DNA of 39,291 nt from positions 1 through 39,291 of IMG/VR virus record IMGVR_UViG_3300025018_000280. The stretch is one strand, 5' to 3'. The translations under genes were made by a program, and so were the position numbers. The number at the start of each line of letters is the position of its first letter. The stretch's first letter is position 1. Shown in pieces: positions 20,279 to 25,937 of the stretch. Under the pieces are notes generated by a model. It saw only the letters and a program-made list of their open reading frames with translations, was not told the origin of the DNA and ran no database searches. Origin of the DNA: a virus (Duplodnaviria; Caudoviricetes).

Positions 20279-20491
20279 TTACGCAATTTCATCTCTCTTA
20301 TCTAGTATATTACTTAACCCGTTCTTAATAATTTCCTGTAATTCTTCACGATTATTAGCGAATAGTTCTTTTATTTCGCTTTTACCAGCGTCATCAATTA
20401 CTTCTATGACTTTACAGACAAAGCCGTTTTCTATTTCTCTGATATCAAAAGCAATAGGTCTTTTGTTTTTCTCTTGTGTTTCTTGTTCCAT
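20279..20491 (-). CDS. Hypothetical protein
   Basis: 70 aa; IREIENGF motif. Confidence 0.7.
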   Translation of the reverse strand: MEQETQEKNKRPIAFDIREIENGFVCKVIEVIDDAGKSEIKELFANNREELQEIIKNGLSNILDKRDEIA

Positions 20492-20501
20492 TTTTAGGTT
20501 G

Positions 20502-20750
20502 TTATTTTTTAAGTTCTGTTTTAAGAAGGTCTATTTCTTTATTAATACCCACGATAGTTAAGTCGTATATCCTTTTATTAAAACTATCCTTTAATTCGTT
20601 GGTTATTTTGTTATATTCTGCCCGGAGGTCGTGTATCTTATCTCTTAATTCATCAGAGGGATAGACTTGTTTGCTTATCTTTTCAAATTCTTTCTGAGCT
20701 TTAATAAGTGGGTCGTTCTTTTCTTTGTGCTTTTGTATTTTATTAAACAT
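20502..20750 (-). CDS. Hypothetical coiled-coil protein, first late gene
   Basis: 82 aa ORF downstream of predicted promoter. Confidence 0.65.
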   Translation of the reverse strand: MFNKIQKHKEKNDPLIKAQKEFEKISKQVYPSDELRDKIHDLRAEYNKITNELKDSFNKRIYDLTIVGINKEIDLLKTELKK

Positions 20751-20758
20751 AATTTTTA

Positions 20759-20827
20759 TTTAAGCCTTTAAGATAAAATGTAACCCATTTTTAATTTTGT
20801 CTAGGACTTATATCTTAAAGGCTTAAA
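20759..20827. repeat. Perfect 17-bp inverted repeat with 35-nt spacer
   Basis: TTTAAGCCTTTAAGATA (20759-20775) / TATCTTAAAGGCTTAAA (20811-20827). Confidence 0.85.
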
Positions 20828-20942
20828 GCAAACATTCTAATGCTTACAAAAATAAACCACCAAAAAGATAGCGTATATTAGACGCCTTCAATAGTTATCA
20901 AAATTGAGAGTAAATTTGAGACAAGCATAATTCATATAATTA

Positions 20943-20971
20943 ATTATACACCCATTATAAAAAAAAGTCAA
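20943..20971 (-). promoter_or_regulatory. Sigma70-type promoter for packaging/structural operon
   Basis: TTGACT-17 nt-TATAAT. Confidence 0.75.
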
Positions 20972-20999
20972 GTTTTTTTAGTGCTTTCATCTTTTTTAT

Positions 21000-21635
21000 C
21001 TAATATCTAGCAACCGCCTCACCACTTTCTATAATATCTTTTAGGTATATTTTTTTATCTGTCGGTTGCAATATGTCCACTTCTACATAATCAGCACTAT
21101 CCCAATGACCAATATGTCTTTTGTCTGCCAATTTTCCAATCCAAAATAATCTTTTTCTCTGTTGTGCAGAAAATAAAGAAGCGTCAATCATAATCGGCTC
21201 TATGTTATAAAGTGTTTCCGTAATTATCTGCTTTGCCTCTTTTGACATACTCGCAACATTTTCCAATATAAAGTATTTAGGTTTTAATTCTTTTAAGATA
21301 CGAACATACTCCCAAAATAAACCGCTTCTCTTTCCGTCCAGTCCTTCTCTGTTCTTTTTAGCAATAGATAAATCTTGGCACGGACTTCCGCCTATAAGAA
21401 AATAAATATCAGTTTCAGCTAACTTTCCTTTTCCGTAATGCAATTTTCCGCCAGTGCAATCAATGTTTTTTATATCTCCTAATTGCTCTGTATTGGGATG
21501 ATTTTTTTGCGTAATTTGAATAGCGTTTTTATCAATTTCAGAAGCGTAATACTCCACTTCATACCCCAATTCCTTGAAGGCTTGCTGTGCTATTGAAATT
21601 CCATCGAAGAGACTGAGAATTTTTATCTTTTGCAT
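21000..21635 (-). CDS. C5 cytosine DNA methyltransferase, N-terminal part only (motifs I-VIII)
   Basis: LSLFDGIS, ASEID, GGSPCQ, ENV, AQQRKRLFW; ends before TRD and motifs IX/X. Confidence 0.85.
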   Translation of the reverse strand: MQKIKILSLFDGISIAQQAFKELGYEVEYYASEIDKNAIQITQKNHPNTEQLGDIKNIDCTGGKLHYGKGKLAETDIYFLIGGSPCQDLSIAKKNREGLDGKRSGLFWEYVRILKELKPKYFILENVASMSKEAKQIITETLYNIEPIMIDASLFSAQQRKRLFWIGKLADKRHIGHWDSADYVEVDILQPTDKKIYLKDIIESGEAVARY

Positions 21636-22249
21636 AATCTTCTTTTTATTGAACCATAAGAAGCATTATACTTCTTGGTCAATTTATAAATTGTCCAACC
21701 GTTTTCATACAGTTCATTTATTTCTGATATTGGTAATTCCAACCGCAAAGGTTTTTTATGTTTTTTATATTTCAATCCTCTTTTTCCTGTATGTGCTTTA
21801 ATCATTTTCTCTCTATATTCGGGGTCTTCCCATCTTTTTTTCATTCCTACCCTTGTTTTGTCTTTCCAAGTTATTTTTCTCCCTTTTAATTTATTTGATA
21901 ACTTCTTACGACAAGATTTTGACATTGTAAAATAATCTCCGCCACTTGTTAAATTGTATCCATTTTTTCTATCCTGTGTTTTTAGGGTTTTAATCCAAAA
22001 AAATTCCCTACTATTCGTATCTTTCTTATTTGTTTTTTCCAATAAACTAATCGTAAAATTGTCTTTTCTATATTTTCTAATTGCCCTATATAATAAAACA
22101 CATCCCTTTAATGGAGAATTATATGCACTGTTTATATGTTTAAGCCATCTTTTTCTATAATTGGTTGATGTCTGCCCAACATATAATTTCCCATTTATGT
22201 TATTTGTAATAAGATATATTTCATTCATATTGACAGTATATCATAATCT
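21600..22249 (-). mobile_element. Intron-less homing-endonuclease insertion with a duplicated, recoded start of its target gene (boundaries approximate)
   Basis: KILSLFDGIS encoded on both sides of the GIY-YIG ORF. Confidence 0.7.
21623..22228 (-). CDS. GIY-YIG homing endonuclease with NUMOD3-like repeats and C-terminal HTH
   Basis: EIYLITNNINGKLYVGQT, RWLKH, AIRKY, REFFWI, GYNLTSGG. Confidence 0.92.
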   Translation of the reverse strand: MNEIYLITNNINGKLYVGQTSTNYRKRWLKHINSAYNSPLKGCVLLYRAIRKYRKDNFTISLLEKTNKKDTNSREFFWIKTLKTQDRKNGYNLTSGGDYFTMSKSCRKKLSNKLKGRKITWKDKTRVGMKKRWEDPEYREKMIKAHTGKRGLKYKKHKKPLRLELPISEINELYENGWTIYKLTKKYNASYGSIKRRLCKR

Positions 22250-22282
22250 TGAAATGCCGTCAAACAGTGAAAGTATTTTCAT
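22241..22282 (-). pseudogene. Orphaned 5' stub of the methyltransferase (MKILSLFDGISRL*)
   Basis: ATG AAA ATA CTT TCA CTG TTT GAC GGC ATT TCA AGA TTA TGA. Confidence 0.85.
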
Positions 22283-22323
22283 AGTATGTTATCAATTGTT
22301 TCACAAAGGCGTGAACAGTTTGA

Positions 22324-22527
22324 TCAATCGCCATTTTCACATTCACATCTTTTACCGCAACTATGACATCTATGTCCAGATATAAATTCATCTAATAGTT
22401 TAATCTTCTCTTGTTCTATGGTTTTGGTGATGAAGTCTTTTAATGCTTGTTTAGTTCCAACTAATCCTCTTTTTTCTATCCAATTTTTTAAAGATGAAAA
22501 TTTATCTTCAAATTGTTCTTCCCACAT
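22324..22527 (-). CDS. Hypothetical protein
   Basis: 67 aa; WEEQFEDKF...LKDFI. Confidence 0.65.
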   Translation of the reverse strand: MWEEQFEDKFSSLKNWIEKRGLVGTKQALKDFITKTIEQEKIKLLDEFISGHRCHSCGKRCECENGD

Positions 22528-22532
22528 ATTAT

Positions 22533-22646
22533 TTATTTAAATAAATTATAGATAAAGCCGATAAGTGTTATTAGAATTATAACTAATAGTAGTGTGTAGT
22601 TAGTGTTTCGTTTTGGTATTCTTACATTTACTTTATAAGTTAGCAT
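22533..22646 (-). CDS. 37-aa membrane peptide (not in ORF track)
   Basis: MLTYKVNVRIPKRNTNYTLLLVIILITLIGFIYNLFK. Confidence 0.5.
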   Translation of the reverse strand: MLTYKVNVRIPKRNTNYTLLLVIILITLIGFIYNLFK

Positions 22647-22683
22647 ATTATTTATTATCCAGCTCTTCTGGAGGGTTAATTAT

Positions 22684-22830
22684 TTACTTTATTAAAACAT
22701 TCTCAACATTGTTTAATTGATGAGTAACCTCACAGCCTCTAAACATTTCTATACTATGCCATACATAGACAGCATACCAAGTTATTATTATAGATGTTAT
22801 CCAGCATAATATCCAAATTAGTTTTGTCAT
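22684..22830 (-). CDS. 48-aa membrane peptide (not in ORF track)
   Basis: MTKLIWILCWITSIIITWYAVYVW... Confidence 0.5.
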   Translation of the reverse strand: MTKLIWILCWITSIIITWYAVYVWHSIEMFRGCEVTHQLNNVENVLIK

Positions 22831-22847
22831 AGTTTTATGTTATTTAT

Positions 22848-23099
22848 TTAAAATTCTCTCTCACCTATATCTATAACGCCATATTCTAAAATATATATGT
22901 CTTTTTCCATTCTTTTAACTTCTTGTTCAGCTTCTTCTTTGGTTTTAAATACCTTAGAGTTACCGAAATAATCCCTTAATGTTTCTTTATACTCCTTGCT
23001 CCCTTTGGGGTAGTAATCAATGTTCTCTATTGCCTGAGCCTCTACAACCCTATATCCGTCTGGGAAATGAGCAAGTAAAATAGCGTTATCTGCTGACAT
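22848..23099 (-). CDS. Hypothetical protein
   Basis: 83 aa; MSADN...AQAIEN...LEYG. Confidence 0.75.
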   Translation of the reverse strand: MSADNAILLAHFPDGYRVVEAQAIENIDYYPKGSKEYKETLRDYFGNSKVFKTKEEAEQEVKRMEKDIYILEYGVIDIGEREF

Positions 23100-23108
23100 A
23101 CTTATATA

Positions 23109-23279
23109 TTATTTATAATTATTTCTTAACCACTCACCAATAGCCTCATCTATAAAATAAGCTATTGGTTTGTTTTGCTTATAAGACATTCTCTTTAATA
23201 TCTTGTGATAGGTTGTTCTTATCCAAGCTGGTGTCCTTTCGTTTAAGGGTATCATCAGACTTTTATCTTTGTATTTCAT
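23109..23279 (-). CDS. Ribbon-helix-helix-like DNA-binding protein, 56 aa (not in ORF track)
   Basis: TPAWIRTTYHKILKRMSYKQNKPIAYFIDEAIGEWL strand-helix-helix pattern. Confidence 0.55.
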   Translation of the reverse strand: MKYKDKSLMIPLNERTPAWIRTTYHKILKRMSYKQNKPIAYFIDEAIGEWLRNNYK

Positions 23280-23291
23280 AGTTTAATTTAT

Positions 23292-23840
23292 TTATATTAA
23301 AGACATAAATCCATTTACTCCTTTTATTTTATAACAATGCCAAAATGGATAAAAAGCTGTTGTTTTGTCTTTTTCTATCCTATTTACAATAAAACCCATT
23401 CTATTATTTGGATATAAAAAACCAGTATCTTTATTAAATTCAATTAACCATCTAATATAAGAGTTATTATTAAAAGCTTGTGTGGGTTGGAGCATTATAA
23501 AAGGTTTATTAAAAGAATAAAGTCTCTTGAAAATTGGAGTTCTATTCTGAAACGGTTGGTTGCTAATTATATAATCGCAATCAATTTCTGTTTCAAAAAA
23601 ATCATCTCCACTGTCTATGTGAGTATTTATAATATTTTTATATCCATTATTTTTTAATGCTATAACTATATTGCTTTGATCAGTATCAAAAGGACACCAT
23701 ATTTTGCTTTCTTTTGGTATTATATTACTAATATAATTTACCATTTTTTCTGCTTCATCTAATCTTGTATCACACTTATCTCTATCACCACTTTCATCTT
23801 TTTTACCCCAATTTACATATATTTTATTATTTTTTTTCAT
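23292..23840 (-). CDS. Small phage adenine-methyltransferase-like protein with deviant NQPF motif
   Basis: IWCPFD, GDDFF, DYIISNQPF, KPFIMLQP. Confidence 0.7.
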   Translation of the reverse strand: MKKNNKIYVNWGKKDESGDRDKCDTRLDEAEKMVNYISNIIPKESKIWCPFDTDQSNIVIALKNNGYKNIINTHIDSGDDFFETEIDCDYIISNQPFQNRTPIFKRLYSFNKPFIMLQPTQAFNNNSYIRWLIEFNKDTGFLYPNNRMGFIVNRIEKDKTTAFYPFWHCYKIKGVNGFMSLI

Positions 23841-25406: not shown

Positions 25407-25937
25407 TTAAAAATTTATAGTTTTATTAGTTACCTTTGTTTGTTCTTCTACTGTTTTACTTCCGTCAAAAGGTTCATCGCCAAAATTTGGTATTGTCTTT
25501 ACTTCTGGCTTTCTACCACCAAATACTTTTTTCTTTTCAATTTTTTTTCCGTCTTGACTATCAAAATCTAGGTTATTGTCTTTAATTTGGAATACTTTCA
25601 TCTTGATATATCTTTCAGAATAGGTATCTGTTCCACCCATTTGTTGGGTTTCGTTAGTGGCTTTGATTGAGCCGTGCTTAGTTCTCATCTCAAAGTAAAT
25701 TTCTTCGCTACTGTCTAAGTCTATGAAAGTAAGTGTTTGAAATAAGCCGTGTTCGTCTGCCTTTAAATTACATAAGACAATAGTGTTAGTTTTTTCACAA
25801 GCATTATCTACTAACTGCTCCACCTGTTCGGGGGTGAAATAGTCAAACTTTGAGTAATTGTTTCTACCAGATTTTTTAATGTTTGAGTTTTTAATTTCTG
25901 CTCTTGCCTTTTTTAGTTTTAATAAAGCATTTTTCAT
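25407..25937 (-). CDS. erf: ERF-family ssDNA annealing protein
   Basis: IKKSGRNNYSKFDY, QQMGGTDTYSERY, F.I...DFD. Confidence 0.85.
   Translation of the reverse strand: MKNALLKLKKARAEIKNSNIKKSGRNNYSKFDYFTPEQVEQLVDNACEKTNTIVLCNLKADEHGLFQTLTFIDLDSSEEIYFEMRTKHGSIKATNETQQMGGTDTYSERYIKMKVFQIKDNNLDFDSQDGKKIEKKKVFGGRKPEVKTIPNFGDEPFDGSKTVEEQTKVTNKTINF

Follow-up and report, generated by a model that had tools for sequence, protein, structure and literature searches.

A GIY-YIG endonuclease cassette with its own gene start in motif I of phage C5-methyltransferase genes, a likely homing element

Layout of the cassette

The DNA analyzed here (the window) is the whole 39,291-nucleotide (nt) virus record IMGVR_UViG_3300025018_000280, which is classed as linear with a completeness of 100%. 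A single run contains the entire stretch, an aquifer metagenome that may be its source. On its minus strand, a gene for a GIY-YIG endonuclease lies between two copies of the start of a C5 cytosine methyltransferase gene (Table 1). The upstream copy, hereafter called the stub, is a 13-codon open reading frame (ORF) with the translation MKILSLFDGISRL*, which is host-like as far as position 22249. The downstream copy, the restart, opens the methyltransferase ORF with an ATG at 21635, within the last codons of the nuclease gene, and the two ORFs overlap by the last 13 nt of the nuclease. KILSLFDGIS is encoded in both copies, with 9 of the 30 nt different over seven consecutive codons and every change silent. 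This arrangement of stub, GIY-YIG ORF, and recoded restart, first proposed in the initial annotation, was confirmed in all its parts.

A 9-bp direct repeat flanking the nuclease ORF had been reported as well. Both copies were found, and the repeat was not common to the other five elements described below. As a target-site duplication it was rejected, since the ends of those five elements share 7 to 9 nt at most, consisting of A/T only. The 2-kb region around the cassette contains 21 families of direct repeats of at least 9 nt, and the repeat is probably a chance occurrence.

A sigma70-like promoter was predicted across the left junction of the cassette. Its -35 hexamer is formed by the F-D-G codons of the stub, and its extended -10 element is formed by element DNA and ends 6 nt before the ATG of the nuclease. 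This hybrid site is among four minus-strand sites that score at least 11 genome-wide, while the plus strand has none (P = 0.016 by spacer shuffling), and it is predicted to give a leaderless nuclease transcript. As a family trait, the hybrid promoter was rejected, because it is strong in the window only. Among the other elements, an element-encoded site scoring 10/12 was found in L106 (P = 0.09) and none in L142, and the remaining ones score 8 to 9 (P = 0.5 to 0.8).

Table 1. Positions of the cassette and of further features in the window
Feature	Position	Strand	Basis
Stub: original methyltransferase start M-K-I-L-S-L-F-D-G-I-S plus element-derived R-L-stop	22241..22282	-	Alignment to empty alleles
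Element-specific DNA: short spacer, nuclease gene, replacement start through the Asp codon	21603..22248	-	Absent from empty alleles
GIY-YIG endonuclease, 201 aa, PF01541	21623..22228	-	Profile and structure matches
Replacement N-terminus MQKIKILSLFD	21603..21635	-	Synonymously diverged from stub
C5 cytosine methyltransferase, 211 aa, PF00145, truncated after residue 208	21000..21635	-	Profile search
Sigma70-like hybrid promoter (predicted)	22235..22263	-	Promoter scoring, spacer shuffling
9-bp repeat, copy 1 (probably chance)	22242..22250	+	
9-bp repeat, copy 2 (probably chance)	21633..21641	+	
Near-consensus sigma70-like promoter (11/12), separate from the element	20943..20971	-	
ERF (annealing protein)	25407-25937		

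Element-free alleles and the native start

Alleles without the element, in which a single start would be joined directly to IAQQAF, had been predicted. Two such empty alleles (L002 and L003) were found, each with one start running straight into IAQQAF and no nuclease upstream. The stub differs from them at 4 and 3 of 33 nt, respectively, and the restart at 8 and 9. Since the stub is near to these alleles and the restart far from them, the alignment identifies the stub as the native start and the restart as having come with the insert. The window gene and L002 have 8 mismatches within the first 30 nt and only 1 within the next 90 nt, and a further element-free allele, present in two runs of which one is the possible source metagenome, aligns with the window from 21602 onward.

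Starts that bear the cassette are rare. Among 122 motif I starts sampled from 4 of the 64 parts of the collection, one was of this kind. The same sample gave no other nuclease family that uses the same stub: 8 of the 122 starts stop within 60 codons, and only L288 (identical to L007) precedes a nuclease of the window type. Frameshifts or decay apparently account for the other seven, of which two have a flank of only 300 nt.

A family of cassettes with a fixed insertion site

Searches with a subfamily profile of the C-terminal half of the nuclease, among them a metagenome scan covering 32 of 64 parts, returned 113 loci. Two copies of motif I surround the nuclease in all 12 full-length loci scoring above 225 bits and in none of the 101 other loci. 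The 12 loci represent six elements, namely, that of the window, L101/102/143/144, L103/104/105, L106, L142, and L145/146. In an earlier set, the duplicated start was found beside 6 of 86 GIY-YIG ORFs, all of them in the subfamily of the window nuclease. Two loci (L007 and L008) came from a methyltransferase search, so the adjacency of the nuclease there is a matter of selection; L020 and L021 were recovered by a search with the nuclease only and have the same layout. The expected further triplets of stub, nuclease, and methyltransferase thus exist as six elements, and the layout represents a family and not a single occurrence.

The nucleases of the other five elements are only 41 to 46% identical to that of the window. 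All six stubs end after FDG plus 0 to 2 codons, which places the break in motif I between FDG and I. In every element, the nuclease ATG follows 25 to 70 nt of noncoding DNA, and the restarted ORF, from its ATG on, overlaps the 3' end of the nuclease gene by 11 to 19 nt. Behind the nuclease, the host ORF is full length in four of the six elements, truncated in the window, and cut by the contig end in L142. For the four elements with a full-length methyltransferase, all six ORFs tested covered the whole dcm profile.

At the very end of another contig (L380:1-64), a methyltransferase start with an N-terminal extension is overlapped by the end of an ORF that resembles the C-terminus of the subfamily nuclease. 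This may well be a seventh element that is truncated where the contig ends.

Properties of the nuclease

The nuclease passes the TIGR01453 model with a score of 70.3, above the cutoff of 56.05. Residues Y5, Y16, G18, R27, H31, E75, and N92 are invariant among the window nuclease and its relatives (11 sequences). In alignments with the I-TevI structures 1LN0 and 1MK0, R27 and E75 fall on the mutated positions, and Y5, Y16, G18, H31, and N92 presumably have catalytic roles. In the predicted structure, the predicted local distance difference test (pLDDT) is about 80 to 90 at both ends, which are joined by a low-confidence linker, and the predicted template modeling score (pTM) is 0.43. The modeled fold matches the I-TevI catalytic domain (E = 4e-6), which was the sole match in the PDB, and residues 168 to 200 gave a weak helix-turn-helix (HTH) match. 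The model thus indicates a modular enzyme of the I-TevI type, with an I-TevI-like catalytic domain, a helical flexible linker, and a C-terminal HTH-like domain. In two nucleases (L101:1707-2444 and L145:217-954), the C-terminal HTH-like unit is duplicated, giving 245 aa compared with about 201 to 208 aa elsewhere.

The ratio of nonsynonymous to synonymous substitution rates (dN/dS) was 0.12 for L101 versus L145, the one unsaturated pair, and below 0.45 in all 14 computable pairs, which indicates that the nuclease is under purifying selection. The three closest nucleases (P0002 to P0004) are 72% identical to it, and P0005 and P0006 are also close. A scan with P0002 as the query returned 40 distant matches, and its own locus was not among them. 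No close relatives were found in cultured phages, in which all 201 records were less than 60% identical, and GTDB genomes gave six weak matches, none of full length.

A GIY-YIG nuclease with an overlapping C5-methyltransferase is also known from type II restriction-modification pairs such as Eco29kI and Hpy188I, and here, too, the nuclease gene lies directly upstream of the methyltransferase gene and overlaps it. However, the restriction endonuclease models gave no match to the nuclease, whereas TIGR01453, PHROGs, and PADLOC (HEase) all gave homing endonuclease labels and the structure search gave I-TevI. One and the same nuclease is partnered with methyltransferases that are 58% identical, near-identical methyltransferases occur without any nuclease, and in the window an intact nuclease stands beside a methyltransferase without its recognition half. 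Neither a restriction endonuclease match nor one complete cognate methyltransferase was thus present, and the stub would be left unexplained. A restriction-modification pair is, on these grounds, highly improbable.

Splicing of the stub to a downstream exon, as by a group I intron, has in its favor that TIGR01453 is named for group I intron endonucleases. Yet no Rfam match at an E value of 1 or below was obtained in the carrier loci L001, L007, L020, and L021, and PF01541 was the only domain in the nuclease ORF. The cassette holds just 25 to 70 nt of noncoding DNA, the stub is closed by a stop codon, and the nuclease is a separate ORF that overlaps the restart. If the transcript were spliced, six elements would not be expected to retain a duplicate start together with a duplicate motif I. 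The catalytic RNA core between exons that defines a group I intron was therefore absent in these searches, as was the in-frame insertion with a splicing domain that defines an intein, in line with the initial annotation. A spliced element is judged very improbable and is the least probable of the explanations considered.

Signs of mobility

The clearest signature of movement comes from L145 and L146. Their cassettes are 99.8% identical over 833 nt, while the upstream DNA is 64% identical and the methyltransferase bodies are 62% identical in nucleotides and 58% in amino acids. Outside the cassette, unbroken identity extends for 20 nt to the left of the left junction and for about 27 nt to the right of the rebuilt motif. 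Similarly, the elements in L103, L104, and L105 are 99.9 to 100% identical over 722 nt, with methyltransferase bodies of 88 to 93% identity. In a FastTree tree of 87 methyltransferase bodies (8 carriers and 79 empty alleles; midpoint root, no clade test), the carriers stand at separate places beside empty alleles. As judged from these alignments, the sporadic carriers and short shared tracts are the pattern expected of homing with short co-conversion.

The same cassette could in theory have arisen by one illegitimate insertion with a short duplication and then traveled as a passenger of the methyltransferase module in phage mosaic exchange. The methyltransferase gene is indeed modular, with copies 96 to 97% identical in different neighborhoods and with C-terminal halves common to distant alleles (L010 versus L002/L003). 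However, the exchange boundaries of L145 and L146 hug the cassette and ignore the gene ends, nucleases as far apart as those of the six elements use one insertion site, and the nuclease is kept under purifying selection. A passenger without homing is therefore considered very unlikely.

Spelling of the replacement start

The codons of the restarts are unusual for these genes. Among element-free phage alleles that encode the same 7-residue peptide, all seven codons differ in only 5 of 1488 AT-rich pairs and in 52 of 4570 pairs overall. When codon likelihood was scored against 58 AT-rich empty alleles, the six restarts fell in the bottom 0 to 3% and the stubs at 3 to 43%. In all six elements, the restart differs from the majority motif at 8 to 10 of 21 nt, and a distance of at least 8 is reached by 1 of the 58 AT-rich empty alleles. 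G or C occupies 20 of 42 third positions in the restarts, compared with 61 of 406 (15%) in the empty alleles (P = 6e-7), and 14 of 28 when one of each close pair was dropped to leave four lineages (P = 1e-5). The stubs are ordinary in this respect, with 10 of 42 (P = 0.09), as are the host-derived codons that come next, with 12 of 42 versus 26%. A change against the AT bias exactly in the duplicated codons suggests that the spelling of the restart is under selection. We lean moderately toward the view that the silent changes themselves would confer immunity to the cassette's own nuclease.

It might instead be supposed that the cassette homes and that its start was captured from a foreign allele and differs only neutrally, with immunity arising otherwise, through loss of the native ATG or upstream context or through tight repression of the nuclease. 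Several observations fit this explanation. The initial annotation had singled out the change from TCA to AGT, but AGT turned out to be the commonest Ser codon at that place in the empty alleles (66 of 101). One empty allele (L005) differs from the restart at 7 of 33 nt and from the stub at 9, and none of the six restarts has an ATG where the native one would align. In the mORF gene hybrids of fungal mitochondria, which are compared below, the duplicated termini have been read as horizontally acquired in passages of PMC3630166. On the other hand, the restarts are GC-rich at third positions despite the AT bias while the host codons that follow are ordinary, the six restarts differ from one another and yet all fall at the bottom of the likelihood scale, and the combination of L5-C with F-TTC occurs in none of 101 empty alleles. 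Neutral capture is thus regarded as unlikely, although less so than the other rival explanations.

Other points weigh against selected, protective recoding or limit how far it extends. The six elements share ancestry, so the codon statistics do not amount to six independent trials. The pattern used to choose the empty set holds the amino acids constant, and four restarts carry substitutions that add to their distance. The stub of the window is itself at a distance of 10 nt from the majority motif, owing to differences in its clade. No one base distinguishes all restarts from their stubs. Restart-like codons also occur in the element-free allele L381 (1 of 3 matches in the full scan), and a captured foreign start could therefore explain part of the divergence. 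The layout counts leave out the genomic context of P0002 to P0006, which include the three closest nucleases, and the truncation of the methyltransferase described below means that a benefit of rescue cannot be shown in the window.

The G of the native ATG was considered as a cleavage determinant and rejected. All restarts lose this G, yet the stubs of L145 and L146 never had it at that place, so it is not a general determinant.

Proposed mechanism

Overall, these loci probably form one family of GIY-YIG cassettes that lack an intron, lie in motif I of C5-methyltransferase genes of phages, bring their own start and the first 9 to 10 codons, and likely spread by homing, with the recoding predicted to be protective. 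The homing mechanism is inferred by analogy with the WHO elements of yeast. During a mixed infection, the nuclease would cut the empty allele at or just to the left of the boundary between FDG and I. The left end would then pair with the 20 to 30 nt of the stub, which is the likely left homology arm, and the right end would pair with the methyltransferase body, so that the cassette would be copied in. In L145 and L146, the stub is the sole homology to the left of the cassette. Annealing on so short an arm could plausibly be assisted by a single-strand annealing protein, for example, the ERF protein of the window.

Since the cassette restores the motif in full, the restored copy must differ in DNA to escape cutting. 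Divergence between the two copies would give immunity, would steer repair to the stub instead of to the new start, which would leave the nuclease gene out, and would hinder loop-out of the cassette. The methyltransferase would be made through translational coupling without splicing, and in the window, the F-D-G codons of the stub would additionally serve the nuclease promoter as its -35 box. A bolder version, which we hold only tentatively and put at slightly under an even chance, is that the cassette is a natural minimal cut-and-rescue drive of 650 to 850 nt that homes among unrelated phages, with a left arm of 20 to 30 nt, about ten rescue codons selected against the AT bias for escape from its own nuclease, and, in the window, a -35 box supplied by the stub.

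Truncation of the window methyltransferase and surrounding genes

The restarted ORF of the window stops at 21000 after 211 aa, while element-free relatives of 96 to 97% identity have 367 aa. It matches positions 2 to 163 of the 329-position dcm profile, and the recognition region and last motifs are absent. No second match to the missing C-terminal half was found anywhere in the complete record, and a split methyltransferase with its other half elsewhere was rejected. A separately assembled contig, possibly from the same sample, has no differences across 20300 to 23200, and a 155-nt contig from another run covers the truncation point, also with no differences; an assembly error is thus unlikely. 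Probably, the window methyltransferase later lost its C-terminal half, and the cassette now lies in a pseudogene that still offers both homology arms. The proposal that the element supplies its target with a replacement N-terminus therefore held only in part: the foreign restart is present, and the target is not functionally restored here. With the methyltransferase truncated, rescue is moot in the phage of the window.

The separate near-consensus promoter (Table 1) lies right after the truncation point and faces the genes before the terminase gene. An inverted repeat with 25-nt arms, 88% complementary and 29 nt apart, occupies 20754 to 20832, just upstream of an 82-aa ORF at 20750, and may be an operator or a hairpin. 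The methyltransferases of L010 (3007-4020) and L002/L003 (3001-4104) have nearly the same C-terminal parts from about residue 190, with N-terminal halves only 50% alike, and this module boundary is close to the truncation point of the window gene. In L248/L249, two full-length C5-methyltransferases of the same family stand in tandem with 857 nt between them. In two unrelated phages, similar ORFs (L003:4101-4706 and L006:3978-4592), which we take to be resolvase-like from their sequence, overlap the methyltransferase stop codon.

The genes of the window, nearly all on the minus strand, include those for terminase, portal, major head, DnaB, ERF, and NinG-like proteins. A second methyltransferase-like ORF (23292-23840, minus strand; phrog_799, no Pfam match) lies 1 kb upstream of the cassette. 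A Shine-Dalgarno-like motif precedes just 2 of the 35 genes checked, so a new start would presumably need no ribosome-binding site here, and the promoters are sigma70-like. We presume that this combination may point to a host of the candidate phyla radiation (CPR) type.

Comparison with known homing systems

As described in parts of PMC2988022, the free-standing phage homing endonucleases (T4 Seg/Mob, Aeh1 mobE in nrdA, and T4 mobA in gene 60) and I-TevI share an I-TevI-like catalytic domain with separate DNA-binding modules. They move by break repair with co-conversion, and some insert in critical gene regions. They differ in being intergenic and cutting at a distance or in splitting a gene into two separately translated pieces, and a duplicated start is not described in those parts of the review. 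In the ShiLan element of actinobacteriophage DNA methylases, the gene for an HNH endonuclease lies in another reading frame inside an insertion that is itself in frame, and the abstract and outline of PMC11855218 describe neither a stub nor a replacement start. Term searches of two further phage papers (PMC10448857 and PMC12724721) found no description of a replacement-start cassette in the text searched. No phage or prokaryotic homing example with a replacement start was found in the open-access main texts searched.

Integrase elements of the SXT/R391 type supply their target gene with a new start. Their insertion in the 5' end of prfC, as described in part of PMC4344509, is an earlier case of a prokaryotic element that lands within the first codons of its target. 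Unlike the cassette, these elements integrate by site-specific recombination and are excisable, with no nuclease and no need for self-immunity.

The gene hybrids made by mobile endonuclease ORFs (mORFs) in fungal mitochondria work in a similar way. They are known from Allomyces atp6 and from Glomus atp6, atp9, cox2, and nad3 (passages of PMC3630166, PMC7487136, and PMC6279837). In these, an intron-less LAGLIDADG or GIY-YIG gene lies in a conserved gene together with a diverged duplicate terminus, and the displaced copy is nearer to the empty alleles. Free GIY genes duplicated together with the N-terminus of atp9 are also mentioned (PMC7487136, in part). The mORFs differ in being mitochondrial and mostly C-terminal, with duplicates of 50 to 240 nt, and the passages do not include a codon-level recoding test. 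The window cassette is not an mORF, as it lies in a phage genome and replaces an N-terminus.

The yeast WHO elements at FBA1 in Torulaspora and Lachancea (Coughlan et al. 2020) provide another functional parallel. As described in parts of PMC7282813, WHO elements home without RNA or protein splicing, carry a replacement gene end, and leave the displaced end as a fragment, which was proposed to act as a homology arm. Their allele-specific cleavage was shown experimentally, with resistance due to sequence differences between alleles, whereas the argument here is based on codon statistics only. The structural class, in which a nuclease gene separates the displaced native fragment from a host ORF whose end is foreign, was seen in 12 of 12 loci. 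WHO elements differ in replacing a 3' end of about 400 bp, in encoding an intein-zinc-finger protein related to HO, in acting in eukaryotic meiosis, and in forming clusters (PMC7282813, in part). The window cassette has a phage GIY-YIG enzyme, acts on the 5' end, carries a cargo and an arm of about 30 nt each, and has its ATG inside the last codons of the nuclease; no element clusters of the WHO kind were found in the 12 loci. Thus, the cassette works like WHO and is not a member of it, its protein being GIY-YIG and its target a phage methyltransferase.

Several limits bear on the significance of these cassettes: eukaryotes are already known to have elements built on this principle, the methyltransferase is probably a nonessential target, and the window's own target copy is truncated. 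As their site is fixed, their mobility signature clear, and their codon shift measurable, they make the idea of immunity by silent change directly testable. Natural pairs of presumably sensitive and resistant alleles with silent differences only should allow a cheap test of codon selection for nuclease immunity, and the family also allows the minimal homology arm for phage homing to be asked about. In annotation, such cassettes can pass for a restriction-modification pair or for an intact gene with an intergenic endonuclease next to it, and they can give the two ends of one methyltransferase gene different histories. WHO elements and mORFs replace 3' ends, and here, the same principle is seen at the opposite, 5' end with a cargo of only about ten codons. 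The splicing-free third class of homing elements, made up of WHO elements and mORFs, would in this way be extended to phages and to gene starts.
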